Below are positions 11,910 through 55,959 of a stretch of DNA of 64,000 nt, piece by piece; position 1 is the first letter of the stretch, and each line of letters opens with the position of its first letter. Both the position numbers and the translations under genes were made by a program. The notes under the pieces were generated by a model. That model was not told where the DNA came from, did not search any database, and saw only the letters and a program-made list of their open reading frames with translations. The stretch spans positions 853,725-917,724 of the forward strand of contig JBFWUP010000001.1 of the NCBI GenBank assembly GCA_050247195.1, given 5' to 3'. Source of the DNA: Candidatus Melainabacteria bacterium. GTDB taxonomy: Bacteria > Cyanobacteriota > Vampirovibrionia > Vampirovibrionales > Vampirovibrionaceae.

Positions 11910-11949
11910 GGCCTCATCATACCCAAAGCAGGCTGTCCGGTCATGAGCG

Positions 11950-30566: not shown

Positions 30567-30595
30567 GGGGATTTGATTCGCCTTTAAGGTGGGGA

Positions 30596-31975: not shown

Positions 31976-31994
31976 GGTCAAAGCCAGAATCCTT

Positions 31995-32996: not shown

Positions 32997-33284
32997 GGTG
33001 CCTCTTTCCGGACTGGAGACGGCTTCACCCAAACGGGGCGCCGTGGATACCTACCTTGTGTTCTCCCGGTGGCCTGCGGCCGGCCCGGTGTCAGTCCCTT
33101 CGTATCTGTATGATAACAACGCTTCAGGGGATCCCTGATCCACTATCTGCCGGATATTCAGTCGTTCCGGTTTATCAGCGATTCCGGAAAATACACTGCC
33201 TGTTGGAGAGGACACAGGAAACCGGCGCTGCAGAAATCCACCCGGCGCAGGAGCCCCGGATGGATTTGGAAATCAAAAAAGGGT

Positions 33285-34823
33285 CTAGTCGTCGATCTGG
33301 GCGCGCTGCAGTTGATCGCTGTGATCGACGTACAGCGTTTTCCACTCGCAGAAAATATCGAGACCCGTGGTGCCGGCCTCGCGGTGCCCGTTACCGGTGC
33401 CTTTCACGCCGCCAAACGGCAGGTGGACTTCGGCGCCGATGGTGGGGGCGTTGACGTAGGTGATGCCGGATTCCAGATCCCGCATGGCCTGGAAGGCCCG
33501 GTTGACGTTGCGGGTATAGATGGCGGTGGACAGGCCGAATTCAATGCCGTTGGCCACCTGAATGGCTTCCTCCAGGCTGCTGACGGGCATCAGGGCCGTC
33601 ACCGGTCCGAAGATTTCTTCCTGGGCGATGCGCATCCCGGATTTGACGTTGTCAAAAAGCGTGGGTTGAATAAACCAGCCGGGCCCGGCGGCGGTGTCGC
33701 GCTGCCCGCCGGTCAGCAGGGTGGCGCCGTCCTGTTTGCCGATTTCCACGTATTCAAGAATCCGTTTCATCGCGGCTTCATTGACCACCGGGCCAATCTG
33801 TACGCCATCTTCCAGGCCAAAGCCCAGTTTCAGCGTGTTGATTTTCCTGACCAGCCGCTCGCGCAGCTCGGCGTGAATGTCCTTGTGGACAATAATGCGG
33901 CTGGCGGCCGTGCAGCGCTGGCCCGAAGTGCCGAACGCGGCCCAGATAATGCCTTCGGCGGCGAGATCCAGGTTGGCGTCTTCCATCACAATGATGGCGT
34001 TTTTGCCGCCCAGCTCCAGGGAGACATGCTTGAGGGTGGGGGCGCAGAGTGTGCTGACGTGCCTGCCAACCTCATTGGAGCCGGTGAATGAGATGAGTTT
34101 CACATCGGGATGGTTGATGAGCGGTTCGCCCACGGCGGTGCCGCCGCCATGCACAATGTTAATCACGCCATCGGGCACGCCGGCTTCGGCAAGGATCTCA
34201 ATCAGCCGGTGCGCCAGCAGCGGGGTGTCCGTTGCCGGTTTAATCACCAGGGCATTCCCGCAGATGAGGGCATGCATGGCTTTCCAGCTGGGAATGGCCA
34301 TGGGGAAGTTCCAGGGGGTGATGAGGCCAACCACGCCCAGCGGCACGCGCACGGACATGGCGAATTTGTTTTTGAGTTCAGAGGGCGTTGTCTGGCCGTA
34401 AAGGCGGCGTCCCTCGCCAGCAGCGTAATAGGTGAAATCAATGGCTTCCTGAACGTCACCACGGGCCTCAGCCAGCACCTTGCCCATTTCGCGGGTCATT
34501 TCGCGCGCCAGCTGCTCTTTGCGCGCCACGAGAATTTCAGCGGCGCGGTAGAGAATTTCTCCGCGTTTGGGCGCGGGTGTCAGGCGCCAGATTTCAAAGC
34601 CTTTTTTGGCGGCTTCCACGGCAGCCAGCACATCTTCCTTTGCGGAAGAAGGAAAGGTCCCAATCACCTCATCCGGTTTGGCCGGGTTAAAACTCTGGAA
34701 AGTTTTGCCGCTGGCGGCGGGTCGCCACTGACCGCCAATCAGATTGAGAAATTCGCTCTGGCTGCTGCTGGGCAGCGGGCTGATCTCGGTGCAGGTGCTT
34801 GAATTAACGTGTGTGGCGCCCAT
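33285..34823 (-). CDS. NAD(P)+-dependent aldehyde dehydrogenase
   Basis: ALDH Glu and Cys active-site motifs (ELGGKNA..., ...GQRCTA...). Confidence 0.85.
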   Translation of the reverse strand: MGATHVNSSTCTEISPLPSSSQSEFLNLIGGQWRPAASGKTFQSFNPAKPDEVIGTFPSSAKEDVLAAVEAAKKGFEIWRLTPAPKRGEILYRAAEILVARKEQLAREMTREMGKVLAEARGDVQEAIDFTYYAAGEGRRLYGQTTPSELKNKFAMSVRVPLGVVGLITPWNFPMAIPSWKAMHALICGNALVIKPATDTPLLAHRLIEILAEAGVPDGVINIVHGGGTAVGEPLINHPDVKLISFTGSNEVGRHVSTLCAPTLKHVSLELGGKNAIIVMEDANLDLAAEGIIWAAFGTSGQRCTAASRIIVHKDIHAELRERLVRKINTLKLGFGLEDGVQIGPVVNEAAMKRILEYVEIGKQDGATLLTGGQRDTAAGPGWFIQPTLFDNVKSGMRIAQEEIFGPVTALMPVSSLEEAIQVANGIEFGLSTAIYTRNVNRAFQAMRDLESGITYVNAPTIGAEVHLPFGGVKGTGNGHREAGTTGLDIFCEWKTLYVDHSDQLQRAQIDD

Positions 34824-35078
34824 AGCAGTACTCCCTCAGTGTTAACGCGTTTCAGAATTCAGACTCTGGATCGATCCCCTCTATTATAGCGAATGAGCCG
34901 GCGCCCTGGTCGACCATCGGGAGGAGAAGACCGGCCCGGTCTGAAATTTCATCCCCCCAAGGGGGATTCTGCCAGCGGCTCAGCAGAATCCGGCGACATC
35001 GCCTATAATGGTAGGTACCCGTCGGCATACAGGGCTTGCACCCATGGCCGGCCGCCCGTGAGAAATAAGGAACCCCCC

Positions 35079-36419
35079 ATGCGTGCTTTCTGGTTGTTTC
35101 TGGTCGCTATCGGCCTGGGTACCAAGCGGCACTGGCATATTCTGATCGCCATTATTGCGGGCATTGTGCTGGGCCTGTTTCTGCCCATAGACCGGGGTCT
35201 GTCGCCGGATGATTTTCCGCTGATCCACAAAGTGTTTGAAGTGGTCGGCCAGGTGTTCATCCGCCTGATTACCATGATTGTGATCCCCCTGGTGGTCAGT
35301 TCCCTGGTGGTGGGCGTCACGTCTCTGGGAGACTCCCGACAGCTGGGCCGGATGGGCGCCAAGGTGCTGATGTACTTCCTGCTGTTTATGCTGGTGGCAG
35401 CCGTTCTGGGCAGTGTTCTGGCCATCACTATGGCGCCGGGAGAACAGATTCGCAGCAGCATTGATACGATGGGTCTGGTGGATCACACGGCCATTGCCAA
35501 ACTGGCGGCCAGCACACCCAGTCTGAAAGAGCTGTTCTTTAATATGATTCCCGCCAACCCCATCGGCGCTCTGGCCAACGGAGATCTGGTGCCGGTAATC
35601 ATCTTCACCATGTTCTTTGCGGTGGCCATTGCCAGTATCGGGGATGCCGGCAAACCCATTACCGCGTTTTTTGAAGGCCTGTTTACGGCCACCATGCGCC
35701 TGACCGACTGGATTATGGTTCTGGCCGTACCCGGGGTGTTCTCGCTGGCGTTTGTGACGGTGGCCAAAGCGGGCCCCGAAATCTTTATTAAGCTGTACCC
35801 TTACATGACGATTATCCTTGGCGGGTTGCTGATTCAGCTGCTGGTGGTGTTTCCGCTGGCCCTGAAACTGTTTGCCCGTATCAGCGTCATGAACCTTTAC
35901 CGCGCCGTATCGGAAGCCATTATGGTGGCCTTCGGCACCGCCAGCAGCTCGGCGACCCTGCCCATCACCATCGCCTGCTGCGAGCGCCGGGCCGGCATCT
36001 CCAACCGGATCGCCAGCTTTGTTCTGCCCACCGGCGCCACCATTAACAAAACCGGAACCACCATGTTTGAAGCCATTGCCGTCATCTTTCTGGCCCAGGC
36101 CTATGGTATCCAGCTCACACCGTACCATCTGGGCATGATCATTATCTTTTCGATCATCGCCTCGATTGGGGCGGCCGGGGTGCCGAGCGCCGGTCTGATC
36201 ACCATCGCCATCGTTTTCAAGAGCATCGGGATCACCGACCCGCTTGTGTTTGCCGGTGGACTGGCTATGATCTGGTCCATTGACCGTGTTCTGGACATGT
36301 GCCGTACCGTTGTGAATGTGTTGAGCAGCTGTTCTGTCGCCGCCATTGTGGCTGCGGGTGAGGGCGAACTCAACCGGGATATTCTGAATCAGCATGAAAA
36401 ATGGACTGACATTGTTTAA
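35079..36419 (+). CDS. Dicarboxylate/amino acid:cation symporter (DAACS, GltP/DctA family)
   Basis: Start at MRAFWLF... The track's N-terminal extension looks non-coding. Multi-transmembrane protein with conserved SSSATLP-type motif (ASSSATLPIT). Confidence 0.8.
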   Translation: MRAFWLFLVAIGLGTKRHWHILIAIIAGIVLGLFLPIDRGLSPDDFPLIHKVFEVVGQVFIRLITMIVIPLVVSSLVVGVTSLGDSRQLGRMGAKVLMYFLLFMLVAAVLGSVLAITMAPGEQIRSSIDTMGLVDHTAIAKLAASTPSLKELFFNMIPANPIGALANGDLVPVIIFTMFFAVAIASIGDAGKPITAFFEGLFTATMRLTDWIMVLAVPGVFSLAFVTVAKAGPEIFIKLYPYMTIILGGLLIQLLVVFPLALKLFARISVMNLYRAVSEAIMVAFGTASSSATLPITIACCERRAGISNRIASFVLPTGATINKTGTTMFEAIAVIFLAQAYGIQLTPYHLGMIIIFSIIASIGAAGVPSAGLITIAIVFKSIGITDPLVFAGGLAMIWSIDRVLDMCRTVVNVLSSCSVAAIVAAGEGELNRDILNQHEKWTDIV

Positions 36420-37308
36420 CGTCCCCGTGACCCTGACCCGTTCCTGCCTTTCCGCCCGCTGCCTGCCTGCACTGTTGGCTGTCCTGCTGCTGGTTTTACT
36501 GCCCGCCAGCGCCCCGGCGCAGGATGACGCCGTGATCGGGCCGGATCCGGGCGGGCAGACCGCCGGCATCGGGCCGGAATCCCCGGCGGGGGAGCACAAT
36601 GCAAAAGCGCTTGATTTTTATCATCAGGGGCTCAGCCATTTCGGCAACGCCAAGTTTCATGAGTCCAAAGGCAATGTGGCTGCCCGCAAGCGCCTGCTGA
36701 AGGCCAGCGTGCAGGCTTTTGAGGATGCCCTGAAAGAAGAGCCCGCCCTGGTGGAAGCGCAGAGCAACATCGGTTTTGTGTACCTGACCGAGAACAACTA
36801 CGGCAAGGCCGTTAAAGCCTTCCAGAAGGCGCTGGCCATGAATCCAAACCACCTCAACACCCTCAACGGGCTGGCCACGGCCTATGCGTTTGAAGATGAC
36901 ATTGCTGGTGCCATCCGAACATTTGATCAGTTAACGACGCTGGATCCTGCAAATACCCAGTTTTACTTTAACAAGGGCGCCGTTCTGCAGAAGGCCGGTC
37001 GTTTTGAGGAGGCACAGGGGGCGTATCAGCAGGCCCTCAATATCAACCCTGAGGATCAGCGCACCCTGTTTAACCTGGGCACCCTGAAAGAAAATCAGGG
37101 GCAGTTGCAGGAAGCCCTGAGCTACTATCAACAGGCCAAGGGCGCTGAGGTGGGCAATACCATTGGCCTGGAAGCCATTAACCGGGTGCAGGCCATTGAG
37201 GCGGAGCTGGCGCGCCGCGAGGGGGAGGACGCCACGGGGACGGGCGGCTCTGAGGCAGCTCAGGCGCCGGAGAAAGCCAGAAAGTCCCGCAAAGGGATTT
37301 TCAAATAA
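36394..37308 (+). CDS. Secreted TPR-repeat protein
   Basis: Signal peptide plus several 34-residue TPR units (...AVKAFQKALAMNPNH... etc.). Overlaps the symporter stop by about 26 nt. Confidence 0.65.
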   Translation: MKNGLTLFNVPVTLTRSCLSARCLPALLAVLLLVLLPASAPAQDDAVIGPDPGGQTAGIGPESPAGEHNAKALDFYHQGLSHFGNAKFHESKGNVAARKRLLKASVQAFEDALKEEPALVEAQSNIGFVYLTENNYGKAVKAFQKALAMNPNHLNTLNGLATAYAFEDDIAGAIRTFDQLTTLDPANTQFYFNKGAVLQKAGRFEEAQGAYQQALNINPEDQRTLFNLGTLKENQGQLQEALSYYQQAKGAEVGNTIGLEAINRVQAIEAELARREGEDATGTGGSEAAQAPEKARKSRKGIFK

Positions 37309-37376
37309 GTACTTTAATATGAATCTGATTTCATCGCCGGATCGACATCCGTGGGGCGTTTGGGGATAATGGGGCG

Positions 37377-38501
37377 ATGAATGAACTGCATCTCAAACAG
37401 GGGTTCCGCCTGAACCGGGCCGTGGCGGCAGCCGCCATGTTTTACCTGGTGGTGGGGCTCTTTCAGGTGCCGGTGGACTGGCAGCATATTCTCGGGCCGG
37501 TGCTGTTTGGCGTCGCCCTGCTGGCGGTCATCGCACTCGTTGTTGGCAATGAGCTGGTCTATGCCTCCGTTCAGCGCTTCCGTAAGCTGGATCCCGTGCT
37601 GGCTGACAAAATGGGACTGGTGCTCCCCATGGTGATGCAGGGGGGGCTGGTGGCCGTCTACCTGGCGACCGGTCAGGCCGGGCTCCTGCTGTTACAGGCA
37701 TTCGGCGTGATGCTGGCCCAGTTGTTCGGTCATCGCCGTCTCGCCTGGACGCTGACTCTGGTCAGTCTGCTGGTGGCCCTGGCCACCATGCCGCTGGGGT
37801 ATCCGCGCAGTATCGGGCTGGCCAGCGCCTTTGGCCATGCCATGCCCTGGGCGGTTGCTGTGGCCATTCTGGCGCCCTTTGTACTGACCCTGTTTTTCTA
37901 CAACAGCCTGTCGGCCTATCTGGTGAATCACACCATGGACCGGGCGAGTAAATTGCAGTCCCTGGCGGCCACCGATGGCCTGACCGGCTTAATCAACCGC
38001 CGGCAGTTCAACCACCAGCTCCATTCGGAAATTGCGCGCGCCCGCCGGGCAAACACCCCGCTGACGCTGGCCCTGTTTGATATTGATGATTTCAAGAAGC
38101 TGAACGATTTTTACGGCCATCCCATGGGCGATCGGATTCTGAAGGAACTGTGCGCCCTGGTGAAAGGCAATGTGAGGGAATCTGATATTCCTGCCCGCTA
38201 CGGTGGTGAGGAATTCGCCCTGATTCTGCCGGAGACCCGTCAGCTGGAAGCCTATGACATTCTGGAACGGCTGCGCGCCATGATTGAGCAGACCGTCTTC
38301 TGTCTGCCGGATAACCCGATCACGCTGAGCGTCAGCGTGGGGCTGGTGCAGATGGATCCTGAGCGCATGACCGCTTTTGAACTGGTGGAGCAGGCGGATG
38401 CCTGCCTGTACGAAGCGAAGAACCAGGGTAAGAACCGGGTGGTGTATGGCGTGGTGCCCACGCCCAAGCTGGATTACATCCAGGGCCGGCCGGTGGCCTG
38501 A
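37377..38501 (+). CDS. Membrane-anchored diguanylate cyclase (GGDEF)
   Basis: Five to six N-terminal transmembrane helices followed by a GGDEF domain with GGEEF active site and RxxD I-site. Confidence 0.8.
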   Translation: MNELHLKQGFRLNRAVAAAAMFYLVVGLFQVPVDWQHILGPVLFGVALLAVIALVVGNELVYASVQRFRKLDPVLADKMGLVLPMVMQGGLVAVYLATGQAGLLLLQAFGVMLAQLFGHRRLAWTLTLVSLLVALATMPLGYPRSIGLASAFGHAMPWAVAVAILAPFVLTLFFYNSLSAYLVNHTMDRASKLQSLAATDGLTGLINRRQFNHQLHSEIARARRANTPLTLALFDIDDFKKLNDFYGHPMGDRILKELCALVKGNVRESDIPARYGGEEFALILPETRQLEAYDILERLRAMIEQTVFCLPDNPITLSVSVGLVQMDPERMTAFELVEQADACLYEAKNQGKNRVVYGVVPTPKLDYIQGRPVA

Positions 38502-38502
38502 G

Positions 38503-39276
38503 GTGCATGGCGTGGCCGAGGAAGCAGCCCTGAGCGCACTGGCCGGCGTGGTGCCGCGGGCGGAGGATCAGAACACCCGCAAGGATGTTCAGGTGCAGGC
38601 GATGTTTGACCGGATTGCCCGCCGTTATGATTTGCTGAACGATGTCATTTCCATGGGCATGCACCGGGGCTGGAAACAGGAAGCCTGCGGCTTGCTGAAA
38701 CTGAAACCCGGCAGCCACGTGCTGGACGTGTGTACCGGCACGGGGGATTTGTGCCGGTGGCTGTTGTCCGCCGTTGGAGAAGCCGGTCAGGTGACCGGGC
38801 TGGACTTTTCAGCCGACATGCTCGCTGTGGCGCGTCACCGTTTTGGCGGGCGCGGCAATGTCCGTTTTGATCAGGGCGACGCCATGCAGCTGCCGTATGA
38901 GGATCACTGTTTTGACGGGGCGATCATCAGTTTTGGGTTGCGCAATGTGCTGGACGTGCCGCGCGCCATTGCTGAAATGACCCGGGTGGTGAAGCCGGGC
39001 GGCTGGGTGGTGAATCTGGATACCTGCCCCGAGCCGGGAATGCCCGGTTACTGGCTGTATTTTTCGCTGGTGATGCCCACCCTGGGCCGCTGGATCTCAG
39101 GCGATCCTTCAGCATATGCTTACCTGTCGCGATCCACGCGCGCATTTTTACCCCCGGCCGAGTTAGAGCGGGTGTTTGAAGAGGCCGGTCTCAGCGAGGT
39201 GCAGACGCAGTTGCGCAGCATGCGCTCTGTGGCCATGCAGGCCGGGCGCAAACCTGCCGGGCTCATTCCCGGGTGA
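38503..39276 (+). CDS. ubiE: Demethylmenaquinone/ubiquinone C-methyltransferase
   Basis: ...VQAMFDRIARRYDLLNDVISMGMH... and SAM-binding motif VLDVCTGTGD. A GTG start at 38503 is assumed; the ATG at 38614 is an alternative. Confidence 0.75.
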   Translation: MHGVAEEAALSALAGVVPRAEDQNTRKDVQVQAMFDRIARRYDLLNDVISMGMHRGWKQEACGLLKLKPGSHVLDVCTGTGDLCRWLLSAVGEAGQVTGLDFSADMLAVARHRFGGRGNVRFDQGDAMQLPYEDHCFDGAIISFGLRNVLDVPRAIAEMTRVVKPGGWVVNLDTCPEPGMPGYWLYFSLVMPTLGRWISGDPSAYAYLSRSTRAFLPPAELERVFEEAGLSEVQTQLRSMRSVAMQAGRKPAGLIPG

Positions 39277-39283
39277 ATGACGC

Positions 39284-39555
39284 TCAGGCCAGATAGCCAC
39301 GCCGTGGCAGGCGTTGCTCCTGTGGTTTTTTCTGTGGCTGCCCCTGCTGATGCTGACCACCATGCTGTTGCTGCCGGCGGCTTTCTTCCTCGCGTCGGGT
39401 GACTTTCTCCTGGCTGGTTTTGGCCTGTTCGGTTTCGGCCACCCGCCCCTGAATGAACCGTGCGTTCTCCACCGCCTCCTGTTTGTCGGCGGTTTCTCTG
39501 GCTTTATAGTAGGCACCCGCTGCGGCGGCTGCCACGTTGGTGGGTGAAATAAACA
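39284..39555 (-). CDS. Hypothetical small Gln/Glu/Arg-rich protein (about 90 aa)
   Basis: GTG start with AAGAGGAAAA 6-8 nt upstream, found by reading the sequence. The track's longer ORF (to 39664) has no RBS. Low complexity. Confidence 0.3.
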
Positions 39556-39784
39556 CGGTTGTTTTCCTCTTCTCGCGGACATGACATGAATCAAAATCAT
39601 ATCCTATAAATATAAAAACATTTTTTAATGAAGATTTGCGACTTTCCGGGGTAAGTGTTACCAAATTGTTACAAAATTTTCAGGGTCTGATGCGCGCCAA
39701 ATTCACGCCCTGAGCGGGTTTGAAAATTTCAAGAGGGGCGCGATCAGAAAATGCAGGCAATTTTTTACCGGGTACCGCGCTGTT

Positions 39785-41182
39785 TTGCGTGAACGCTGGT
39801 GGTCGCGTTTGCGGTTTTCACCGGGGAAGTCGTCAAGCGCCTTACCCGCACAAAAATGGGAAAAACCGTTTTTATGCCAGTGGGGGAAGTCTGATCCGGT
39901 CACACCCGGCACCCTGCACCCTTCGATCCAGGGGTGGGCGATATCTGAAAGCAGTATCAGCGTTCCGCACCTGGCGCAGGCAGCGTCACCGGACTATTCA
40001 CCTGCGGATACAGCGAGAGGCAGCGTTTTTTTGAGCACCATCGGCAGCACAACCCACTTTACCGGCCTACCGTCTATTTTCGGGGGTCCGGCCAACCAGA
40101 CAACTGCTCCGTCACGTTCGGTCGGGGTGAGCGCACCGGGTCACCCCGGTGAGGCTTCCCTGGCCGGACTGGCGGCCCCTTCCCCAGCCACATCCACCAC
40201 TTTCGCCCGGGCCGGGATCACCCCGGGCAGTGGTCAGCCACCGTCCGCCTTGGTTTCAGGAATTTCTCCGTTTGCCTTTACCGGGGGCACCCGCAGCGTG
40301 GCCGAAGAGACCGCCCTGCTGCGTCGTTCGCCGGTCATCGATCTGTCCGGCCGCCGGGCGGCCGACCGCACCTTTGGGGATGTTTTTACCCACAAGGCCG
40401 GCATCTGGGCCTCGCGCATGGGCGCCGGCGAGCTCTTTGATCACGCGTTTGAATCCATGGGCAAACGCGGCTTTGATCCAGTACTGAATACATCTATGGA
40501 AAATACCTTACTACTGGGTAAGCCAGATTTAACAAAGAGCATTTCTAAAACCTACCCATATGGTTATGAGGGCTTATTCTCACTACGTGGTGCTCAGGAT
40601 GTTACACCTGCATATCTGCGTAGCCCGAAAGCTTATAAAGACCTGTTGCATTACAACTTTAAGCCTCACTTGGAATTCTATCGTCCGTCTAATCTGCGTC
40701 ATCAGATGGCACAAGGTGAAGGTCTTTTTAAATTCGGCCTAAAGGATTACTTCACCAAAACCCTGTGGGGTCGCAATATCGATCCCATTCGCCCGGCCAA
40801 CCTGATCAAAGCCGAGGCGTCAGGTCTTGGAAAAATCTCCGGCGCTGGTGTGGCGCAGGCGCTCGGATTGGGCCTGTTTGGCTGGGATATCGCCAAAACA
40901 ACGAAGACCGCTTACGACAACGCCCGCCACGAAGATGGGGCCGCCACGGTTTCCATTGCTGCCGAGACCGGCAAAGAGTTCGCCAAGCAAGCTACCAAAA
41001 GCCTCATTACTTGGGAAATAGCTGGCGCGGGCCTTGCCGTTGGGCGCAAAGTTTTGCCAGGGGTTAATATTGGCAACCATCACATCCCACTGGGTGGCAT
41101 GGTGGTTGGCGCATTACTGGCAACCGGAATGAACCAAGTTTTGGAGCGAGTCGCACCAAAACCAAAAAAGCACCTGAATTAA
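39785..41182 (+). CDS. Modular hypothetical protein: Ser/Thr/Pro/Gly/Ala-rich N-terminal half, lower-GC foreign-codon C-terminal half ending in a glycine-zipper hydrophobic hairpin; candidate polymorphic toxin or bacteriocin-like effector
   Basis: Track ORF with TTG start; no in-frame ATG until about 40420, so the true N-terminus is uncertain. From about 40480 onward the composition is about 40-50% GC with cgt/ctg/aaa codon preference, unlike neighbouring genes. C-terminus is ...KSLITWEIAGAGLAVGRKVLPGVNIGNHHIPLGGMVVGALLATG... Confidence 0.5.
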   Translation: MRERWWSRLRFSPGKSSSALPAQKWEKPFLCQWGKSDPVTPGTLHPSIQGWAISESSISVPHLAQAASPDYSPADTARGSVFLSTIGSTTHFTGLPSIFGGPANQTTAPSRSVGVSAPGHPGEASLAGLAAPSPATSTTFARAGITPGSGQPPSALVSGISPFAFTGGTRSVAEETALLRRSPVIDLSGRRAADRTFGDVFTHKAGIWASRMGAGELFDHAFESMGKRGFDPVLNTSMENTLLLGKPDLTKSISKTYPYGYEGLFSLRGAQDVTPAYLRSPKAYKDLLHYNFKPHLEFYRPSNLRHQMAQGEGLFKFGLKDYFTKTLWGRNIDPIRPANLIKAEASGLGKISGAGVAQALGLGLFGWDIAKTTKTAYDNARHEDGAATVSIAAETGKEFAKQATKSLITWEIAGAGLAVGRKVLPGVNIGNHHIPLGGMVVGALLATGMNQVLERVAPKPKKHLN

Positions 41183-41446
41183 CTTATTCATTTGGAGGAG
41201 GAGGGGGAGGAGGAGGCGTGTTGGGTCGGGAACCCTCAAGGGGTCCACCTGCAAAAGTTGCAGGTCTGTAATTATGCAAAACAGGTCGGTTTACTTGCCG
41301 ACCTTGAAACCGAAGCGGGGACGCGGCGGAAAAGTGACCCATAGAGACATTCATGATTGTTTACCTTACGGGGTTATGGGGAAACACACGTTGAATCAAC
41401 CCCCAACATACCGCCAGATCGCTTGAAAAGGCAGCGATGTAAATAA

Positions 41447-41686
41447 AGGTAAACCAATATAAGCTATTCAGCCAATAAAGTCGGCAAGCAGTTCACCAAG
41501 TCCCTGATCACCTGGGAAGTGGCAGGCGCAGGTCTGGCCATTGGCCGTAAAGTATTACCCGGTTTTAATATTGGCAGTCATCACCTGCCACTGGGCGGCA
41601 TGGTCGTTGGTGCCGTTGCAGCCACAGCCGCCAACAAGCTACTGGAAAAAATCGCCCCTAAAGTAAAAACCAGAAACCAAGCCTAA
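41447..41686 (+). pseudogene. Start-less orphan copy of the C-terminal approximately 75 codons of the upstream gene (silent cassette or decayed paralogue)
   Basis: In-frame TAA at 41444-41446, then TNISYSANKVGKQFTKSLITWEVAGAGLAIGRKVLPGFNIGSHHLPLGGMVVGAVAATAANKLLEKIAPKVKTRNQA*. Manual alignment gives 43 of 62 aligned residues identical to the main gene's C-terminus, with many synonymous nucleotide differences. No ATG, GTG or TTG start downstream of the stop. Confidence 0.5.
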
Positions 41687-41700
41687 GCAAATTTAGGCTT
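41679..41700 (+). terminator. Hairpin AAGCCTAA-GCAAAT-TTAGGCTT followed by a T-rich run (TTTTCATCATCTTCTTC; the U-tract proper is only TTTT, positions 41699-41702); candidate bidirectional intrinsic terminator
   Basis: 8-bp perfect stem overlapping the orphan cassette's stop codon. The U-rich stretch reads on the plus strand. Confidence 0.5.
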
Positions 41701-42047
41701 TTCATCATCTTCTTCACGTTCGAATTCTCTGGGGCCGCGTTTCCCAAAGCTAACCGCATCCTGCGAGCACCCGAAGAGAACCATCCCTTCCTTGGCTTTG
41801 GCGCTGAAGGCATTCTGTGCGCGGTTGGTGCACATCGCACCGGGGGACGAACCAAACATCACGTTCATGGCGGGGAAACTCCACATCATTCATTAGCGGG
41901 GGAACACTGGAGAAAGAGGCGGCTCTAGGCCGACAGCTTCTATTAAAAAGAATCGACGGCCCCAGCGGGCCATTTATGAATGAATTGTTACAACCCAGGG
42001 CCGCCCACCCCGCCAGGTTGGGTGTGAAAATCGGGCTGGCTTACACT

Positions 42048-42896
42048 CTAGTAGGCCAGGTAGCTGCCGTAGGCGAGGATGCCGTAGATGGATTGCAGCG
42101 CGCGGTACAGGGCTTCAAAATCGTCGGTCTGCCAGGCCACAGTCCGGCCATCGATGCGGCTCAGCCAGGGCATCAGCATGGCCACATCCGCCTGAACGCT
42201 GGTGGTCAGGGTGACTTCCAGCCGGTAGGGCCCTTTCAGGGCAAGACGGTTTTGCGGCCAGCGGTCACGATTCTGCATCAGCGCGCCCATGACATGGGTG
42301 AATTCGCTGAGGACGGTGTCGACAGGCTTACAGACGGCCGCTGTGGTGGAGAGACTTTCCTTGGTGCAGACGGTACTGAGACCTGGCAGGAGTCCGGTGA
42401 TCTCCCGGCAGAAGGTGTCATCCCCGCTGGCGAGGATAACCGGCACCTGATGAACCAGGCTGGCGTACAGGGCGTTGATACCCCCCTCGCCATAGGAAAC
42501 GCCGTTCACGCGTAAATCAAAGATGGCGCTGTGAAAGGAGTGGTTGAGTATGCCGCGCTCACTGCCTGCTTTGGCGTGGTAACCAAGGTAGATGGCGCCG
42601 TCAAATTCAGAGGTCAGCCCCGCAGCCATCGCGCATGGTTTGGGTTTGCCGCTCACCAGGGTCACGCCGTCGCGCAGCATGTCCTGGCGCAGGTTGGTCA
42701 TGCCGTAATGGGAATCATTGACCGTGATTGCCGTGGCGCCGGCCTGGCGGGCGGCATCCACCACTGTGTTGACTTCCAGCGCCAGCTGAGCCACGGCCAG
42801 GGTGTAGGCCTCGCGGTCGCGGGCAGGGTCGCATTGCTGCGGCGCCGTGACGCCACACACGCCTTCCAGATCTGCGGAGATATAAAGTCGGGTCAT
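42048..42896 (-). CDS. dppA: M55 family D-aminopeptidase (DppA-like)
   Basis: N-terminal MTRLYISADLEGVCGV... hallmark of peptidase M55. ATG at 42896 has TGAGG upstream. Confidence 0.75.
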   Translation of the reverse strand: MTRLYISADLEGVCGVTAPQQCDPARDREAYTLAVAQLALEVNTVVDAARQAGATAITVNDSHYGMTNLRQDMLRDGVTLVSGKPKPCAMAAGLTSEFDGAIYLGYHAKAGSERGILNHSFHSAIFDLRVNGVSYGEGGINALYASLVHQVPVILASGDDTFCREITGLLPGLSTVCTKESLSTTAAVCKPVDTVLSEFTHVMGALMQNRDRWPQNRLALKGPYRLEVTLTTSVQADVAMLMPWLSRIDGRTVAWQTDDFEALYRALQSIYGILAYGSYLAY

Positions 42897-42967
42897 ACGC
42901 CTCATTACCGTCCGATGGCATGGTTTCATTATAACCAACAAGCCCGCCGCAACCGATGCGTAAAACC

Positions 42968-42999
42968 AAAGGCCCTCCCCTGGATGGGGGAGAGCCTTT
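42968..42999. repeat. GC-rich imperfect palindrome AAAGGCCCTCCCC-TGGAT-GGGGGAGAGCCTTT (REP-like, copy 5)
   Basis: Seen between the dppA start and the YtxH gene end. Confidence 0.4.
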
Positions 43000-43024
43000 G
43001 AAAGCGGGTGTCAGCGCTTTTGCG

Positions 43025-43375
43025 CTACAGCGGGGTGGCGTCGGCCGGTTTCAGGGCGCCGGTGCCGCCATTGCCGTTGGCGTTGTCAAAGCGCTCCATG
43101 GTTTTTCGGCCCACGGATTCCAGCTCCGAAGAAATTTCCCGGGCTTTGTCGGAGAGGGTGGCCACTTTGGACTTCACGTCCGTGGTGACTTTCTGGGCCA
43201 CATCCTGGGCGGTGTGGGACACTTTCTCCTTGGAGGCGGCCACACGCTGGGCGAGATCTTCGCGGATCAGGCGGCGGGTTTCTTCACCTTTGCGGGGCGC
43301 CAGCAGCATGCCCACCACGGCGCCCACGCCGATGCCCATCAGAGAGCCCATGACGAATTTTTCGAATGACGACAT
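43025..43375 (-). CDS. YtxH-domain general-stress-type protein
   Basis: N-terminal ...GSLMGIGVGAVVGMLLAPRKGEETRR... matches the YtxH consensus (membrane helix plus APKSG-E-R). Confidence 0.6.
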   Translation of the reverse strand: MSSFEKFVMGSLMGIGVGAVVGMLLAPRKGEETRRLIREDLAQRVAASKEKVSHTAQDVAQKVTTDVKSKVATLSDKAREISSELESVGRKTMERFDNANGNGGTGALKPADATPL

Positions 43376-43432
43376 TGTCTTCCTCCTTCTTTCTGCTTAT
43401 TCGGTTGTCTGTAAAAACAGGGGGGTAAAGCG

Positions 43433-43831
43433 TTATGCCTTGCGGCGGGTGAATGACTGGAGCAGCCCGTTAAACAGGGCCCCGCCAACGGCCGATACGC
43501 CCATTTTGAGTCCGCTGGACACAGCTTTTAAGCCTTCGGCGCCTTTGCTGAAAGTGGGTCTGGTGGCTTCCACCCCCCGCTCAATGGCATTCACGCTCTG
43601 CACGGCCTTGGCGCTCAGGGTTTCCAGGTGGCTGACGGTCAGCCGGGTTTCCTGCAGCAGGGGTGAGAGTTCGTACTGGGCCACGGTCATAAACTCATTC
43701 ACCCGGTGCAGCAGCATGACCAGTTTGTACAGCAGCACCGCCAGCAGCAGCGCCACAGGCACAAAAAGGATGAGGTTGAGCTGGATGAGTTGGGAAATAC
43801 CGTTGTCCATGGGAGACTCCCGGGTGATCAA
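43433..43831 (-). CDS. DUF948 family membrane protein
   Basis: Single N-terminal transmembrane helix followed by coiled-coil-like region. Start may be the internal ATG at 43810. Confidence 0.55.
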   Translation of the reverse strand: MITRESPMDNGISQLIQLNLILFVPVALLLAVLLYKLVMLLHRVNEFMTVAQYELSPLLQETRLTVSHLETLSAKAVQSVNAIERGVEATRPTFSKGAEGLKAVSSGLKMGVSAVGGALFNGLLQSFTRRKA

Positions 43832-43842
43832 TGAGTGGGGGG

Positions 43843-44157
43843 CTACATGTCGTAGCCGCTGGCCATTTCTTCGGCCTGCTTGGCGCGGGCCAGTTTTTCG
43901 GCGCGACGATCCCGCTTCACTTTTTCAACCTGGTTCTCAATGCCGTAGCGGGTGCGGTCAAAAATTTCGCGGGTTTTGGGGTCGCTGATTTCATCAGACA
44001 GTTTTTCAGGCAGATCCTTGACGAAATCCTCAACATCGCTGCGGATTTCGTTGCCGGATTTGGGCGCGTACAGCACACCCAGAATGGTGCCGCCAACCAG
44101 TCCGGCCAGCATGCCCAGAACAAAGGAACCAATACTGCTGCGATCATCGTTTGCCAT
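43843..44157 (-). CDS. YtxH-domain protein (second paralogue)
   Basis: ...GMLAGLVGGTILGVLYAPKSGNEIR... YtxH signature. Confidence 0.6.
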   Translation of the reverse strand: MANDDRSSIGSFVLGMLAGLVGGTILGVLYAPKSGNEIRSDVEDFVKDLPEKLSDEISDPKTREIFDRTRYGIENQVEKVKRDRRAEKLARAKQAEEMASGYDM

Positions 44158-44255
44158 GAGGTGCCATTCCTTCTTGCTGAATGTCCCTTTCAGGACTCTA
44201 CCAGTCTAGGAGACGTCTCCCTGCCCGTCAAGTCTGACCGGGCTAGGTAATCTGG

Positions 44256-44549
44256 CTAAGCATGCCGGGCCGTGCGGGCCAGTGCCTGCCGCCAGAGAAA
44301 CCAGAGTATTTTGAGTTTGGGTGATTTGGGCCTGAACTGCCAGATTTCCGCCTCGTGGGCCATCACGCCCAGTTTGCGCCGGCTGTCGCGCATGGCGTGC
44401 CGCACCTGAATAATCTGGGCCAGCCAGTGACGCCGACGCGTCTTCCACTGATGGCTCCAGCCGGTGACCTGCGGCAGGGCGTAAGCCAGCATGACCAGAA
44501 TGATGATCTGGAGCAATGCCAGCAGTATCCATCCCAGTCCGGTCATCAC
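44256..44549 (-). CDS. Hypothetical small membrane protein
   Basis: N-terminal hydrophobic helix GWILLALLQIIILVMLAYAL. Stop overlaps the upstream gene's start region. Confidence 0.35.
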   Translation of the reverse strand: MMTGLGWILLALLQIIILVMLAYALPQVTGWSHQWKTRRRHWLAQIIQVRHAMRDSRRKLGVMAHEAEIWQFRPKSPKLKILWFLWRQALARTARHA

Positions 44550-44953
44550 GGATTTGTCTCCCCGTTTTGCGGTGCAGCGGGGGTTGCCTCGTCCCCGTCA
44601 TCCAGTTTCTCCAGCGAGGGGTTGGGAATATTGACGTGCTTCAGGTAGTCGTACTCGCGGGTGTACACGCCTTTTTTACAGCGGCGGTGACGGGCAATCC
44701 ACAATTCGCGCTGAGGAATGTAGAGGCCGCGGATCCAGGCCGGCTTGTCATAAATGTCCTGCACCCGCTGCCGGATGGGTTCGCAGCGTGTTGAAAAATC
44801 ATCGGGCGGGAGGGGTTCGTAGTTTTCAATACCGGGTTCCTCGGCATGCTTTCCGGGCCAGATTTTCAGAGCGCTGGCTTCTGGTGCGAGAAACGCCGGG
44901 CTGATGAGCAGACCCGCCAGGAGCAGCATGGGAATCAGTCGTTTCAAAGTCAT
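44546..44953 (-). CDS. Secreted hypothetical protein
   Basis: Signal peptide MTLKRLIPMLLLAGLLISPAFLA. The track's longer N-terminus would overlap the GH38 gene. Confidence 0.4.
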   Translation of the reverse strand: MTLKRLIPMLLLAGLLISPAFLAPEASALKIWPGKHAEEPGIENYEPLPPDDFSTRCEPIRQRVQDIYDKPAWIRGLYIPQRELWIARHRRCKKGVYTREYDYLKHVNIPNPSLEKLDDGDEATPAAPQNGETNP

Positions 44954-44981
44954 GTCAGGCCATTCCGTTTGCAAACCGTTT

Positions 44982-47570
44982 CTATTGTACCGAAAAGACA
45001 AGGGTCCGCACCGACAGCGGTGGGAATGTGAACGCGAGGACACCCTCCCTGCCGGAAATGGCGGCATCGGGGAGGGGTTCTCCCAGGGCATTGGTCGGCA
45101 GGGCGTTCTGCAGTTGCAGGCTTGTGGAGAGTGTGACGGGTACAGTCTGGTCAGTGGTATTGATCAGTCGCAGGATAATCTGGTTGTTTTCCCGGTACAA
45201 AGCGCTCATGATCACTTCCGGGGCATCCCAGGAAAAAACGCTGTGCCCGGCGGGTGTCTCGCTGGTGGGTGAGGCAGGCAGGTAGGCTGTGGGGGAGACC
45301 GTGAAACAGTCGCCGTAAAAGTGATCGGCTTCCGTGTAAAGCCGGTGGGTTTCTTCCGGCTGGGGCAGCCAGGCATAGCGGGCTTCCATGGGTGATTCGG
45401 GATACTGGGCTTCGGGCGTGGGCAGTGGGGGGCCGGCCTGCGCGCCGCGCACCCCGGTTTCATTGCTGGAGAGCAGCCCGAACGCGCGCATCAGCGTGAT
45501 GTGGAAGTCCGCGCCCATTACTTCATATTCACACAGGCCTTCGGTAATCCACGCCTGATCGTTGGCGGCTGCAAAGCGCTGAACCGGGCCTGTGCTGGTT
45601 TTCAGTTCTTTCCACGGCGCCACCGGCATGGCCTCGGCCATCCGGTAATCCGGGTTGTAAGTGCGTGTCACCGTGCCGAAATGGCCTTCGGCCAGCACAC
45701 AGGTCATGGGTCCTTTGGTCGGGAAGACCACCTGAAGCGTATGGCCGGGGTCGTGGTTAATCCAGCGGCTGTGGGCGGTGATTCGGGGGCTGCCGGCAGT
45801 CACGGTCAGTGTGGTGTGCAGCAGGTGGTGGCCCGTGGCCTTGCCGGTGCGCGAGTAGGTGAGTTCAACTTCGGCCACCAGGGGACCGGTCTGTGTCAGC
45901 CGGGCGTCACACAACCGGTATGCTGTGGGGTGGCTGCCGGGCACCGGCGCACGATTGTAGGAGTCTCCCTGATCGGGATAATCCAGAATGCGGTGGGTGT
46001 GTTCATAACGCAGGTTACGCCGGCAGTCCGTCAAAGTAACCGTTCCACCGGTGGCGGCGTTTTTTCCGGTGGGCAGATGGATTTCAGCAGCCACCAGACC
46101 ATTTTCAAGGCGGATGGTTTTCTGCCGGACCGTACCCGACTGGATGGACACCACAGGCTGCGATACAGGCTTTCGAGACGATGAGAGCGGCGCTGCCGAT
46201 AAGGGCGGTACGTTCTCCACCCACACCCAGCCGTTGCGAACAGTGGTGGTGCGGTGGGCAAGCGGAACAATCTGGTGGCTGGTGCGATCGTGCCGGATTA
46301 AAGTGGTTTCAGTTGCACCGGTCTGATCGAAATCAGCGGCGTTGTCGTCGCCATAAAACTGTACAGGAACAGCACCGGTAAAAGGCATACTGCCCGTATT
46401 GACGAGGACAGGCTCTCCCGTGGCGGCCGTGAGACGGTGCAGCGCACGATGCTGCAGGCCGGCGGCGATGTCCCGGATTTCATCGTAGCGGGCCATATTG
46501 GCCCGGTGAACGGAATCCACGCTGCAGCCGCAGATGCTGTCGTGCGGGGTGTTCAGCAGCAGCAGCTCCCAGGCCGTTTCCAGCGCCATCACTTCGGCGT
46601 CATTTTCAGGCGGGCTGATGACCATGAGAGGTTCAATCACACGCGTCAGTTGGTGCTCCAGCTGGCGCTGCGCCTGTTTAAGCGGTATGCGCGCACTGTA
46701 TACGCCCGGCAGCAGAAACTGGGCGCTGCAGTCGGTGAGTTCTCCGGGAACGGTTTCCAGTGTGCCGGTGGGTTGCTGCTGCCAGTGGGTCTGCATGGCC
46801 TGCATAAAACGATCCGGGGTGGTGGTTTGCATGCCGGGCAGCCAGGCCGCCAGGCTGGTAAGCGCGTCGGGAGTGAGGGGCCCGAGGTGGTCTCCGCCCA
46901 GGGGTAGCAGAAAACCCGGCTGACCCGCCGGGGTGGCGGCGACCAGCTTATCGCGCAGGGCGTCCAGCGCGCGCCGGCGCGCGTCGTCCTCAGACAAATC
47001 GGGATCCTGAAAAGGCCACTGGAAATAGCCCTCGCTCAGGTGCGCGGTGAGGACACGGCTGCCGTCGGGGCTCTGCCACCAGAACATGTTCTGCCCGGGG
47101 TTTACCCCGCGCCAGACGATGGCTGAGCGGATGCCGCACATATTCAACATCAGCGGCATGTGAGCGCTGTGGCCAAAGGTATCCGGCAGATACCCCGTGA
47201 AGTCATGACAGCCCCAGCTGCGGGCGGTGCGGATTCCCCGGATCAGATTCCGCAGTAGCGCTTCGCCGCTGATCAGCAGTTCATCCGGCATCACAAACCA
47301 GGGGCCGATGGTGAGTCTGCCCTGCTGAACCGCCCCGAGCAGACGATCCGTCTGATCGGGCCGCAGGGCCAGATAGTCAGACAGCAGCACCGTCTGGCCG
47401 TCCAGGGCAAAGCAGTCCATCTGCCCGGCATCCAGCCGTTCGAGAATGGCGTCAATCACCTCAGCCAGACGCAACTGGTAGGTCCGGAAGGGTTCATACC
47501 ATTCCCGGTCCCAGTGGGTGTGAAAAAACACCCATGGGGTTGGTTTCAGTGCCACGGCAGTGTCGCTCAT
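44982..47570 (-). CDS. Glycoside hydrolase family 38 alpha-mannosidase (mannosylglycerate-hydrolase-like)
   Basis: N-terminal ...HTHWDREWY... GH38 catalytic motif and the remaining 862-aa architecture. Confidence 0.8.
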   Translation of the reverse strand: MSDTAVALKPTPWVFFHTHWDREWYEPFRTYQLRLAEVIDAILERLDAGQMDCFALDGQTVLLSDYLALRPDQTDRLLGAVQQGRLTIGPWFVMPDELLISGEALLRNLIRGIRTARSWGCHDFTGYLPDTFGHSAHMPLMLNMCGIRSAIVWRGVNPGQNMFWWQSPDGSRVLTAHLSEGYFQWPFQDPDLSEDDARRRALDALRDKLVAATPAGQPGFLLPLGGDHLGPLTPDALTSLAAWLPGMQTTTPDRFMQAMQTHWQQQPTGTLETVPGELTDCSAQFLLPGVYSARIPLKQAQRQLEHQLTRVIEPLMVISPPENDAEVMALETAWELLLLNTPHDSICGCSVDSVHRANMARYDEIRDIAAGLQHRALHRLTAATGEPVLVNTGSMPFTGAVPVQFYGDDNAADFDQTGATETTLIRHDRTSHQIVPLAHRTTTVRNGWVWVENVPPLSAAPLSSSRKPVSQPVVSIQSGTVRQKTIRLENGLVAAEIHLPTGKNAATGGTVTLTDCRRNLRYEHTHRILDYPDQGDSYNRAPVPGSHPTAYRLCDARLTQTGPLVAEVELTYSRTGKATGHHLLHTTLTVTAGSPRITAHSRWINHDPGHTLQVVFPTKGPMTCVLAEGHFGTVTRTYNPDYRMAEAMPVAPWKELKTSTGPVQRFAAANDQAWITEGLCEYEVMGADFHITLMRAFGLLSSNETGVRGAQAGPPLPTPEAQYPESPMEARYAWLPQPEETHRLYTEADHFYGDCFTVSPTAYLPASPTSETPAGHSVFSWDAPEVIMSALYRENNQIILRLINTTDQTVPVTLSTSLQLQNALPTNALGEPLPDAAISGREGVLAFTFPPLSVRTLVFSVQ

Positions 47571-47633
47571 ACCCCACAGTTTACCAGCTTCTCACCGGCG
47601 GGGCGGCGTCTGAAAAAACGCTGACGGCATCAA

Positions 47634-48473
47634 TTACTGGATCAACCGCAGGGCTTCTTCCAGCAGGTTTTTGTTGGTGGAAATCAGTTTTGAGGTGAAA
47701 TCCATCTGCAGCTTGGCCTGCTGCAGTAGCGCCACGCTGCCGCGGATATCCACGTTGGATTTTTCCAGCAGGCCTTCCCGGATTTCACCTGTGCCGGCCA
47801 CCGGCTCGCCGGAGAGGGCTGTGGTCTGGAACATCTGATCTTCTGTTTCCGCAAGGCCACCGGGGTTCACAAAGTTGACGAGAGCCACTTTGTACAGCGG
47901 GGTGACCACACGGCCCTGTTCGGCAATGCCCACGAGGGTGCCGTCGGAACGGGTTTTGAATTCATCATACTTGCCCAGGAACTTGCCGTTGGCGGGGTCC
48001 ACCCACAGGTTAATGCCCACGGTGGGGGTGTGTCCCGGTCCGCCCTGGCTGTGGCTGGGGTTATTGGCCGTGCCGCCCGGGTTGGTGGCGCCGCCCGTAC
48101 TCACCGGATTGCCGTCATCGCCCAGCATGTAGCCCTGCAGGGCATAACCCTTGCTGTTGACCAGATTGCCTTCAGCATTGAAGCGAAAGTCGCCCAGGCG
48201 GGTGAAGAAAAGCCCGCCATCGGGCTTGCGCACGGCAAACATGCCGTTGCCCTCAATAAACATGTTGGTGGGCGCGGTGCCGGGTATGGCTTTGCCCTGT
48301 TCCGTACTGCGCGGGGTCTCACTCAGCCGCACGCCGTTCACATAATCCGAGAACGTGGAGGTGACCTCCCGGTAGCCCGGTGTGTACATATTGGAGAGAT
48401 TCTGGCTCAGGGTGCCAATCCAGCCCTGGGCGGCCTTCTGGGAGTTCAGCGCTGTAATGAAGGGGTCAAACAT
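47634..48473 (-). CDS. Flagellar hook/basal-body rod family protein (FlgE/FlgF/FlgG-like, short)
   Basis: Conserved rod/hook N-terminus (...MYTPGYRE...) and C-terminus (...SNVDI...LLQQAKLQMDFTSKLISTNKNLLEEALRL). Confidence 0.6.
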   Translation of the reverse strand: MFDPFITALNSQKAAQGWIGTLSQNLSNMYTPGYREVTSTFSDYVNGVRLSETPRSTEQGKAIPGTAPTNMFIEGNGMFAVRKPDGGLFFTRLGDFRFNAEGNLVNSKGYALQGYMLGDDGNPVSTGGATNPGGTANNPSHSQGGPGHTPTVGINLWVDPANGKFLGKYDEFKTRSDGTLVGIAEQGRVVTPLYKVALVNFVNPGGLAETEDQMFQTTALSGEPVAGTGEIREGLLEKSNVDIRGSVALLQQAKLQMDFTSKLISTNKNLLEEALRLIQ

Positions 48474-48515
48474 GCCGGGTTACTCCTGGTTGCGCCAAAC
48501 ACGGCGTTGGCGTCG

Positions 48516-49295: not shown

Positions 49296-49329
49296 TCCGG
49301 GTTCCTTCTGTCGTACCTGACGGAAAAGA

Positions 49330-49815: not shown

Positions 49816-50011
49816 AAGAGAGCAGTTTCACGCCGGTTGATGTCGGAGGGGGTGTGCGGACGGGCGGATGCCTGTTCTCACACTAACCAGATATCGGCAG
49901 TTCGCAAGAAAATCGAGGGCGCCGGTGCGTTTTTCCCCTGAATGAAGGATATCATACGACGTTCGTAGCCGTCCAGGGAGCCGGCATCCCGGGGCGGTGT
50001 TTCGGAACGTT

Positions 50012-55777: not shown

Positions 55778-55959
55778 GGGGATGCCTCCTTTGCCCGGCC
55801 CGGGCAGAACCTGCACCGTATCATTGTAGCGTATGTTTGCCACTTGCTGGCTTGGGCAGCATCTAAAAAAACCGAGTATAGACACCTATACAAGACAAAA
55901 ATCAAACGATACCCTGATGACATCAAATGAATTTTCGATATGTGATCAGGAGAACAGAG

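Follow-up and report, generated by a model that had tools for sequence, protein, structure and literature searches.

The gene and its locus

The stretch of DNA analysed here, 64,000 nucleotides of one contig of a Candidatus Melainabacteria metagenome-assembled genome (MAG) and hereafter called the window, contains at 40031-41182 on the forward strand a gene for a 383-residue protein of an uncharacterised family, within which the guanine-plus-cytosine (GC) content falls abruptly. The gene was given a TTG start that matches the annotated P0001, a paralog in the same genome, and a GAGAGG motif lies upstream of it. The open reading frame (ORF) itself reaches back as far as 39785, and 465 residues are given for its product in the public record. 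The adjoining ORFs encode proteins with a UbiE-methyltransferase domain, a Peptidase_M55 (DppA) domain and a GGDEF domain. A second assembly, GCA_050182425.1, contains a 20.8-kb locus (L002, contig JBFXCH010000001.1) that is the exact reverse complement of part of the window, and the DppA protein encoded there is 100% identical to that of the window. Paralogs of the gene were found on other contigs of that assembly (P0001 on contig 3, P0123 on contig 4 and P0125 on contig 8), and one more, P0002, was assigned to the same MAG by a locus-tag prefix in common with P0001. The genome therefore holds at least five paralogs of the gene. The 465-residue product of the window, though in the public record (L002), was absent from the results of the word-indexed protein search, which returned its paralogs only.

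Composition within the gene

The composition shift in the gene is real but patchy. An earlier note on this DNA, made by a model from the letters alone, had placed a shift to lower GC and different codon choice in mid-ORF at about 40480, and the sliding GC, GC3 (GC content at third codon positions) and codon check that it proposed gave a significant deviation from background. The main low-GC segment, 40475-40774 (residues 149-248), has a GC content of 0.42 and a GC3 of 0.39 over its 100 codons (z = -6.1), compared with a background GC3 of 0.728 ± 0.055 and a minimum of 0.54 among 1327 100-codon windows from 40 other ORFs. It is also the most diverged part of the gene between paralogs. TTA and CTA together supplied 40% of its leucine codons (3% in the background), CGT 80% of its arginine codons (12%) and GGT 75% of its glycine codons (16%), and the codon string that the note had quoted was located in frame at 40617-40661. 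In 30-codon steps along the gene, GC3 was 0.77-0.80 for starts at 40265-40385, then 0.53 (40415), 0.37 (40445) and 0.30 (40475), and it remained at 0.30-0.47 up to the start at 40685. The left edge of the low-GC stretch is sharp, falling within about 10 codons at ~40470-40480. On the scale of the whole 64 kb, 40461-40760 was the lowest-GC interval of 300 nt (0.417, with a mean of 0.597 and a standard deviation of 0.041) and 40480-41700 the lowest-GC interval of 1220 nt (0.500, standard deviation 0.026).

The flanking genes with UbiE and DppA domains were described in the note as compositionally normal, and they are (GC3 0.73 and 0.75). The note further described the anomaly as continuous to the terminator, which does not agree with the measurements. 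The stretch at 40775-40984, which encodes the first Gly-rich hydrophobic helix, is normal (GC3 0.67, GC ~0.60), and the sequence beyond it is only moderately low: GC3 is 0.49 in the last 65 codons (40985-41182, a milder low-GC3 patch that encodes a conserved Gly-zipper C-terminus) and 0.53 in an orphan 3' cassette farther downstream, and the spacer between them has a GC content of ~0.50. GC at first and second codon positions (GC1 and GC2) drops along with GC3 in the low-GC patches of the window gene and of P0123. The region encoding the N-terminus, 40031-40342, is GC-rich mainly through GC2 (0.6-0.83).

The protein family and the position of the junction

Among 5.8 billion protein clusters, a word-indexed search detected only P0001 (80% identity) and P0002 (65-69%, depending on the alignment). 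A three-sequence profile searched with HMMER against 1.84 billion representatives matched 70 proteins at E ≤ 1e-3, including P0123 and P0125, and a further word-indexed search with the family alignment as query added only one usable protein. P0125 lies between two Acetyltransf_6 (FemAB-like) genes (L004 3775-7179). The database name of every relative is 'hypothetical protein'. No Pfam or NCBIfam match was found for the gene, 45 of its relatives, the orphan or the small ORFs, and searches of PDB sequences and for known folds gave no match for the family.

The protein has two parts. Residues 1-104 (40031-40342) form a disordered N-terminus rich in Ala, Pro, Ser and Gly, which is near-identical to that of P0001 and was modelled with a predicted local distance difference test score (pLDDT) below 50. 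AlphaFold2 modelled residues 105-383 as one all-alpha domain of ~280 residues, with a pLDDT of 84-94 from residue ~180 onward. Many of the profile matches cover residues ~105-380 and thus run across the compositional junction at 40475, which corresponds to residue 149. In the alignment of 46 family sequences, conserved positions lie on both sides of this residue: before it the region that reads FGDVFTHK..IW.SR in the window protein, and after it Y179, L185, N209, N249, W328-E329 and the Gly-rich C-terminus. The earlier note had proposed that a foreign C-terminal half, together with the downstream cassette, was fused to a native N-terminal half. The domain that contains the junction is homologous throughout in about 70 proteins, and alignment and model alike indicate no domain fusion at 40475. 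Furthermore, the low-GC part has its nearest relatives among the paralogs of this genome, and the lineage-specific piece that does not belong to the family is the disordered N-terminus, not the C-terminus. If anything, the picture of a native N-terminus and a foreign C-terminus is reversed.

The C-terminal third is predicted to contain three moderately hydrophobic, Gly-rich helices (residues ~266-288, 325-345 and 352-374), from which the protein is probably membrane-associated. In other organisms (L006, L008, L009 and the JGI contig of P0149), a divergent NUDIX gene, the family gene and a convergent ORF of 115-155 codons occur together, with a gene for a WecB-type UDP-GlcNAc 2-epimerase adjoining, a UvrA gene near and a single family copy per contig. 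A neighbourhood conserved in this way suggests a chromosomal role, perhaps connected with the envelope, and not that of a mobile toxin. The convergent small ORFs of these organisms have no obvious similarity to one another.

The repeated module and its segment-wise divergence

The gene is part of a module at 39848-41997 that is repeated at 9818-11988 of locus L001, on contig 3 of the same MAG, with 82% identity over 2200 nt (blastn). The L001 copy is not syntenic with that of the window: P0001 lies there between a 5'-nucleotidase-like gene and a CBS-domain gene. Common to both loci are a leader, the gene, a spacer, the orphan 3' cassette, a convergent small ORF and a terminator-like hairpin. 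The N-terminal part of the gene therefore belongs, together with the leader, spacer, orphan and small ORF, to one 2.15-kb unit present at a second locus, which is a further point against an acquired C-terminal half. A MAFFT alignment of the two modules showed blocks of ~99% identity at 39848-40066, 40090-40345, 41301-41550 and 41761-41995, diverged blocks at 40445-40770 (55-70%) and 40936-41180 (70-76%), and two parts that could not be aligned, 41183-41300 and 41665-41760. Two short patches, 40067-40089 and 40346-40360, are replaced relative to P0001, the second of them just beyond the disordered N-terminal part.

Synonymous (dS) and non-synonymous (dN) divergence between the window gene and P0001 was calculated by segment with the Nei-Gojobori method. 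The first segment, 40031-40474, had a dS of 0.19 and a dN/dS of 0.59 as a whole (GC3 0.70) and contained a stretch, 40151-40333, with a dS of 0.00. Synonymous sites were saturated in the main low-GC segment, where dN was 0.24. In 40775-40984, dS was 0.70 and dN/dS 0.066, and in 40985-41182 dS was again saturated, with a dN/dS of 0.03; the stretch 40964-41113 likewise gave a saturated dS. The two low-GC3 patches coincide exactly with the two patches of saturated synonymous divergence. A single history is impossible for an ORF that contains both a dS of zero and saturated dS.

When the window copy was compared with P0001 and P0002 at the protein level, the informative sites were also distributed in blocks. 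The 106 sites fell into 33 runs, and none of 1e5 permutations had as few (P < 1e-5). Nine consecutive sites shared by the window copy and P0002 lie at residues 131-151 (P = 6e-5), and other P0002-like tracts cover residues 173-194 and 330-359. The composition boundary lies ~50 nt downstream of the first switch, which is at residues ~129-131 (nt ~40415-40421). Between 41018 and 41107 the gene resembles its own orphan cassette (78% identity) more than it does the P0001 gene at L001 (64%), and the relation is reversed in the flanks. The clustering of informative sites indicates that the gene is a gene-conversion mosaic. The test of phylogenetic incongruence that the earlier note had suggested was thus positive, both in the runs of informative sites and in a dS that ranges from zero to saturation along one ORF. 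Its suggestion that segments are exchanged holds for the paralogs of this one genome, among which the mosaic was detected; exchange among lineages is not demonstrable here.

The orphan 3' cassette

The orphan cassette at 41453-41686 (+) repeats the last ~68 codons of the gene. It is truncated at the 5' end and promoterless, and its homology begins at ~41480. As a direct repeat (D1) it is 76% identical to 40980-41112 of the gene. It is preceded by an in-frame stop codon and has a counterpart at L001 11453-11650. The tail of the window orphan, GGMVVGAVAATAANKLLE, is of the P0002 type. The window and L001 orphans differ at 16 synonymous and four non-synonymous sites (P = 7e-7), as coding sequences would. 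The L001 orphan has no start codon before an internal ATG, and the GTG at 41519 of the window is GCG there. An orphan that evolves like coding sequence, though its L001 copy is without a start, fits patches that were copied from functional genes. The simplest reading of these sequences is that the orphans swap templated patches with functional copies, and translation of the orphan by some other route is conceivable. The repeat was also considered as part of a diversity-generating retroelement, and this was rejected: mismatches are not adenine-specific, with 13 of 55 at adenines of the orphan and 16 of 55 at adenines of the main gene. No reverse transcriptase-like gene occurs among the called neighbours, although the wider window was not scanned for one.

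Other features of the module and its surroundings

The 5' leader (39848-40030, +; 183 nt) is 99% identical to that of P0001, and its GAGAGG Shine-Dalgarno-like site is at 40015-40020. Its folding energy was no better than that of shuffled sequences (z = 0.14), and an Rfam scan of 39300-42200 gave no match above noise. The first part of the spacer, 41183-41300, which cannot be aligned between the modules, contains a 23-nt polypurine tract, GGAGGAGGAGGGGGAGGAGGAGG, at 41194-41216, beginning 12 nt past the stop codon of the gene. A different, GA/GT-rich tract is present at the equivalent place in the unalignable spacer of L001 (~11157-11190). The polypurine tract could be a recombination-prone or structure-forming motif. 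The second part of the spacer, 41301-41452, in which the modules have 97-99% identity, shows no sign of coding and has no Rfam match. The spacer as a whole folds better than expected (z = -3.2), and modules that are near-identical in some parts and unalignable in others give no covariation information. Comparison of the two modules revealed no conserved forward ORF in the spacer.

Antisense to the spacer, ORFs at 41187-41354 (-) and at L001 11154-11330 (-) both start with MNVSMGHFSAASPLRFQGRQ, diverge and end in a poly-Pro run, which is the reverse complement of the polypurine tract. The window ORF is probably not a gene, since a terminator-like hairpin (41304-41283) lies inside it. That the frame is open in both modules is weak evidence, as its first 20 codons are common to both and a polypurine tract yields antisense frames free of stop codons.

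The right-hand end of the module contains two hairpins and a small ORF. The palindromic hairpin AAGCCTAA-N6-TTAGGCTT at 41679-41700 overlaps the stop codon of the orphan and is not kept in the paralogous module; it is probably the terminator of the earlier note. The convergent ORF at 41683-41889 (-) encodes 61-68 residues, starts with MNVMFGSSPGAMCTNRAQNAFSA and is open in both modules despite indels, its counterpart being L001 11662-11880 (-). The public record has it as a 61-residue gene. Its N-terminus lies within a 99% block and its C-terminus is diverged; the product reads MMWSFPAMNVMFGSSPGAMCTNRAQNAFSA...VLFGCSQD.VSF..., with a variable charged tail, and it had no Pfam or NCBIfam match. 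The other hairpin, terminator-like, is at 41956-41973 (-), downstream of dppA and within the right-hand 99% block.

We rejected the module as a mobile element. It has no terminal repeats, there is no tRNA gene in 30000-50000, and no further copies occur in the sequence examined. The 9-mer TTGTTACAA, present at both 39664 and 41985, is no more than chance would give and lies outside the homology block. Scans of phage, plasmid, viral-contig, species-representative-genome and JGI-metagenome collections returned no relative of the low-GC part and no copy or strain variant.

Upstream of the gene and divergent from it is an ORF for a small, highly charged protein of ~90 residues (39284-39562, -), with a weak match to DUF6690 (E = 0.02). 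The intergenic region between the two includes the second-lowest-GC 300-nt interval of the 64 kb (39581-39880, 0.44), and further low-GC intervals of this length are at 1461-1760, 55861-56160 and 62781-63080 (GC 0.44-0.49). The wider neighbourhood at 43025-44157 (-) and 47634-49295 (-) includes genes for a YtxH-like small protein, a flagellar rod/hook protein (LlgE_F_G_D1) and FliJ, and a GH38 alpha-mannosidase-like gene is at 44982-47570. The nearby flagellar rod/hook and FliJ genes suggest that this Melainabacteria lineage is flagellated.

Origin of the low-GC segment

The composition dip is not confined to the window gene. P0001 has it at the same place (GC3 0.30-0.47). In P0123, which is 37% identical, the dip at L003 6181-6480 is deeper (GC3 0.20-0.40, GC 0.26-0.34), and the N- and C-terminal parts have normal composition. 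The L003 locus has 55% GC overall, compared with ~60% for the window and L001, and the P0123 dip is below the two AT-rich non-coding stretches of the window (0.44). In most pairwise comparisons the middle segment is less conserved than any other part of the protein, and the best foreign relatives have 21-34% identity there. Under the amelioration model, saturated synonymous sites imply ample time for a foreign composition to ameliorate, so a single old acquisition fails to explain a dip in paralogs as diverged as these. Either AT-richness is locally maintained or diverged alleles were imported recently and repeatedly. Local maintenance is favoured because no donor-like sequence was detected in any collection searched and because low-GC donors at a distance of 21-34% identity would lack the DNA flanks needed for homologous replacement.

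The explanation that we prefer, with moderate confidence, is that the gene is one of at least five paralogs and that its low-GC stretch is an old, unhomogenised middle of an intact domain, not a foreign half. The modules of the window copy, P0001 and P0002 would swap segments by intragenomic gene conversion, in which the truncated 3' cassette would participate. Some blocks would be kept near-identical in this way (dS ~0), and others would have gone without homogenisation for very long periods (dS saturated). The low-GC stretch would represent the least-constrained middle of the family domain, accompanied by the milder second patch at the C-terminus. Bacterial mutation is AT-biased, and GC-rich genomes are upheld by selection or biased conversion (PMC2936529; PMC4450053). 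The patch may escape locally the force that holds synonymous sites GC-rich, be it GC-biased conversion or recombination-dependent selection; it would thus lie closer to the equilibrium set by AT-biased mutation, and its amino-acid content, being weakly constrained, would have drifted likewise. We infer this local escape less firmly than the conversion, and escape from a GC-raising force, selection for AT-richness and import are all candidate causes of the AT-rich patch.

Several observations weigh against this explanation. All data rest on one Candidatus Melainabacteria MAG, P0002 was compared at the protein level only, and the three-way mosaic test is a test on a protein alignment. P0125, in the same genome, has no dip (GC3 0.57-0.83), and neither do relatives from other organisms, P0124 (locus GC 0.59), P0129 (0.43) and P0130 (0.51), so AT-richness is not a necessary property of the domain. 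Single-copy genes here have a GC3 of ~0.73 without any paralog for conversion; a lack of conversion between paralogs is therefore not enough to account for a GC3 of 0.39, and local escape has to assume in addition a patch that is a cold spot of allelic recombination or a hot spot of mutation. The sharpness of the left boundary suggests a recombination breakpoint rather than a gradient of mutation. Lastly, 41301-41550 is AT-rich yet 97-99% identical between the modules, and GC content and identity are thus imperfectly correlated.

A sharp left boundary is what recurrent import would leave, if the middle and the C-terminal patch had been replaced by alleles of lower-GC relatives through recombination anchored in the conserved flanks and had not been ameliorated since. 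This corresponds to the exchange among lineages that the earlier note gave as its alternative. Import would also account for saturated-dS patches that adjoin blocks with a dS of ~0, and family members do occur at loci of 43% and 51% GC, where the GC3 of the gene (0.38 and 0.54) is similar to that of the patch. We nonetheless consider it unlikely. Neither the 5.8 billion clusters nor the 1.84 billion representatives contained a close relative of the patch from outside the genome, the best having the 21-34% identity given above; donors so distant would offer no DNA-level flanks for homologous recombination, and any donor sufficiently close for recombination would presumably be GC-rich too. The window copy, P0001 and P0123 would each require an independent import at this place of the domain, at least three in all, and no relative was present in the phage, plasmid and viral collections. 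Recurrence at a homologous place, in paralogs that are 37% identical and synonymously saturated, speaks for an AT-richness of ~300 bp that is itself kept by selection, as a platform for a silencing nucleoid protein, as unstructured mRNA or as a run of rare codons that slows the translation of a membrane protein. The patch does use codons that are rare in the genome (TTA, CTA, CGT, GGT and CCA) and directly precedes the hydrophobic Gly-zipper helices. Such selection is rendered quite improbable by P0125 and the relatives elsewhere that have no dip, by the lack of a forward-strand promoter-like site or Rfam element in the patch, by a patch sequence that is the least conserved part of the gene, and by the drop in GC1 and GC2, which drift would explain better than a specific element would.

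The Gly-zipper helices bring pore-forming effectors to mind, and a conserved N-terminal part, a diverged lower-GC part and a promoterless 3' fragment downstream are what a polymorphic-toxin-like locus would have, with a variable C-terminal effector and orphan 3' modules. Regular-expression searches of the protein found no VENN or PxxxxDPxGL motif, however, and no secretion, Rhs or haemagglutinin domains and no Pfam match were detected. The variable part stays homologous (66% at the amino-acid level), and the very last C-terminal residues are conserved. No ORF of a size fit for an immunity protein is present, the orphan contains only the conserved last ~68 codons and not the variable part, and relatives in other organisms are single-copy per contig in their conserved NUDIX, WecB-type epimerase and UvrA neighbourhood, all of which makes a toxin-like locus very unlikely. 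Extremely unlikely, in our view, is an assembly artefact in which reads of a lower-GC relative were joined into the gene through conserved blocks common to both. The DNA does come from a MAG, and repeats with 99% identity confuse assemblers, but the frame is intact, the segment is homologous to the family and under purifying selection, and the dip occurs at three separate loci. Identical products are encoded on a second contig set with contigs of different lengths, although the two assemblies may share reads, and a Logan assembly of SRR27751815 is 100% identical at the P0125 locus only, which is dip-free and so supports the assembly in general. The single horizontal gain proposed in the earlier note, in which the C-terminal half and cassette were acquired together and fused to a native N-terminal half, is in keeping with a composition that changes in mid-ORF. 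It is scarcely credible with a junction inside a domain conserved as a whole, an N-terminal part that moves with the module, a stretch of normal GC (40775-40984) that interrupts the supposedly foreign region, and no mobility genes, tRNA genes or terminal repeats.

There is a further, functional interpretation, which we regard as improbable: that the AT-rich middle is a maintained hypervariable region, and that the family is a previously undescribed, Melainabacteria-restricted, membrane-active one diversified by cassette-like conversion among at least five paralogs and truncated 3' copies. If true, the non-photosynthetic relatives of cyanobacteria would have a system for antigenic variation or specificity switching that is new, and its AT-richness would be required, or else a side effect of allelic lineages that persisted for long without recombining.

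To return to the preferred explanation of an unhomogenised middle, the GC shift in this gene is the border between homogenised and non-homogenised tracts. For annotation, a sharp intragenic GC shift in a multi-copy family should not be read as horizontal transfer or fusion. The analysis also documents an uncharacterised helical family of ~70 members that is expanded to at least five copies in one Melainabacteria genome. The persistence of a 300-bp AT-rich islet at a homologous place in long-diverged paralogs of a 60% GC genome is a puzzle, and the islet, apparently long-lived, could serve as a natural test of whether bacterial GC-richness depends on recombination.

Comparison with known systems

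Segmental gene conversion within multigene families that include truncated donor cassettes is known from Neisseria pilE/pilS, Anaplasma msp2/p44 and Borrelia vlsE. The arrangement described here would work most like such families, in particular pilE/pilS and msp2. As in pilE/pilS, msp2 and vlsE, there are paralogs within one genome, near-identical blocks that flank a diverged centre, a promoterless, 5'-truncated copy beside a full-length gene, and mosaic tracts that are statistically supported. The differences are that both copies compared here are full-length with their own leader, that each module has one cassette, and that this cassette, unlike those of pilE/pilS and msp2, covers the conserved C-terminus and not the variable middle. 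Furthermore, the protein is not a known surface antigen, it comes from the MAG of an uncultured member of the Melainabacteria, and ongoing directional variation is without support.

The likeness to CdiA-CT and Rhs-CT loci is a lower-GC variable part that begins at a sharp boundary inside the ORF, followed by an orphan 3' fragment. Unlike those loci, this one has no demarcation motif, secretion domains or immunity gene, its variable part is homologous among copies, and its orphan does not contain the variable part. With horizontally acquired islets, as in the model of Lawrence and Ochman, the locus shares a GC3 and codon usage that are atypical of the host, and this compositional property is the only one of such islets that was recognised in it. 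Its low-GC patch is, by contrast, ~300 bp long, lies inside a conserved domain and recurs at the homologous place in synonymously saturated paralogs, and neither mobility signatures nor an external donor were found. The last comparison is with recombination-linked GC heterogeneity, in which respect the homogenised segments of this gene are GC-normal and the unhomogenised ones AT-richer (PMC4450053; PMC2936529). In the published cases the scale is that of allelic recombination across genes and genomes, whereas here it would be that of a few hundred base pairs between paralogs, with recombination as a putative cause.

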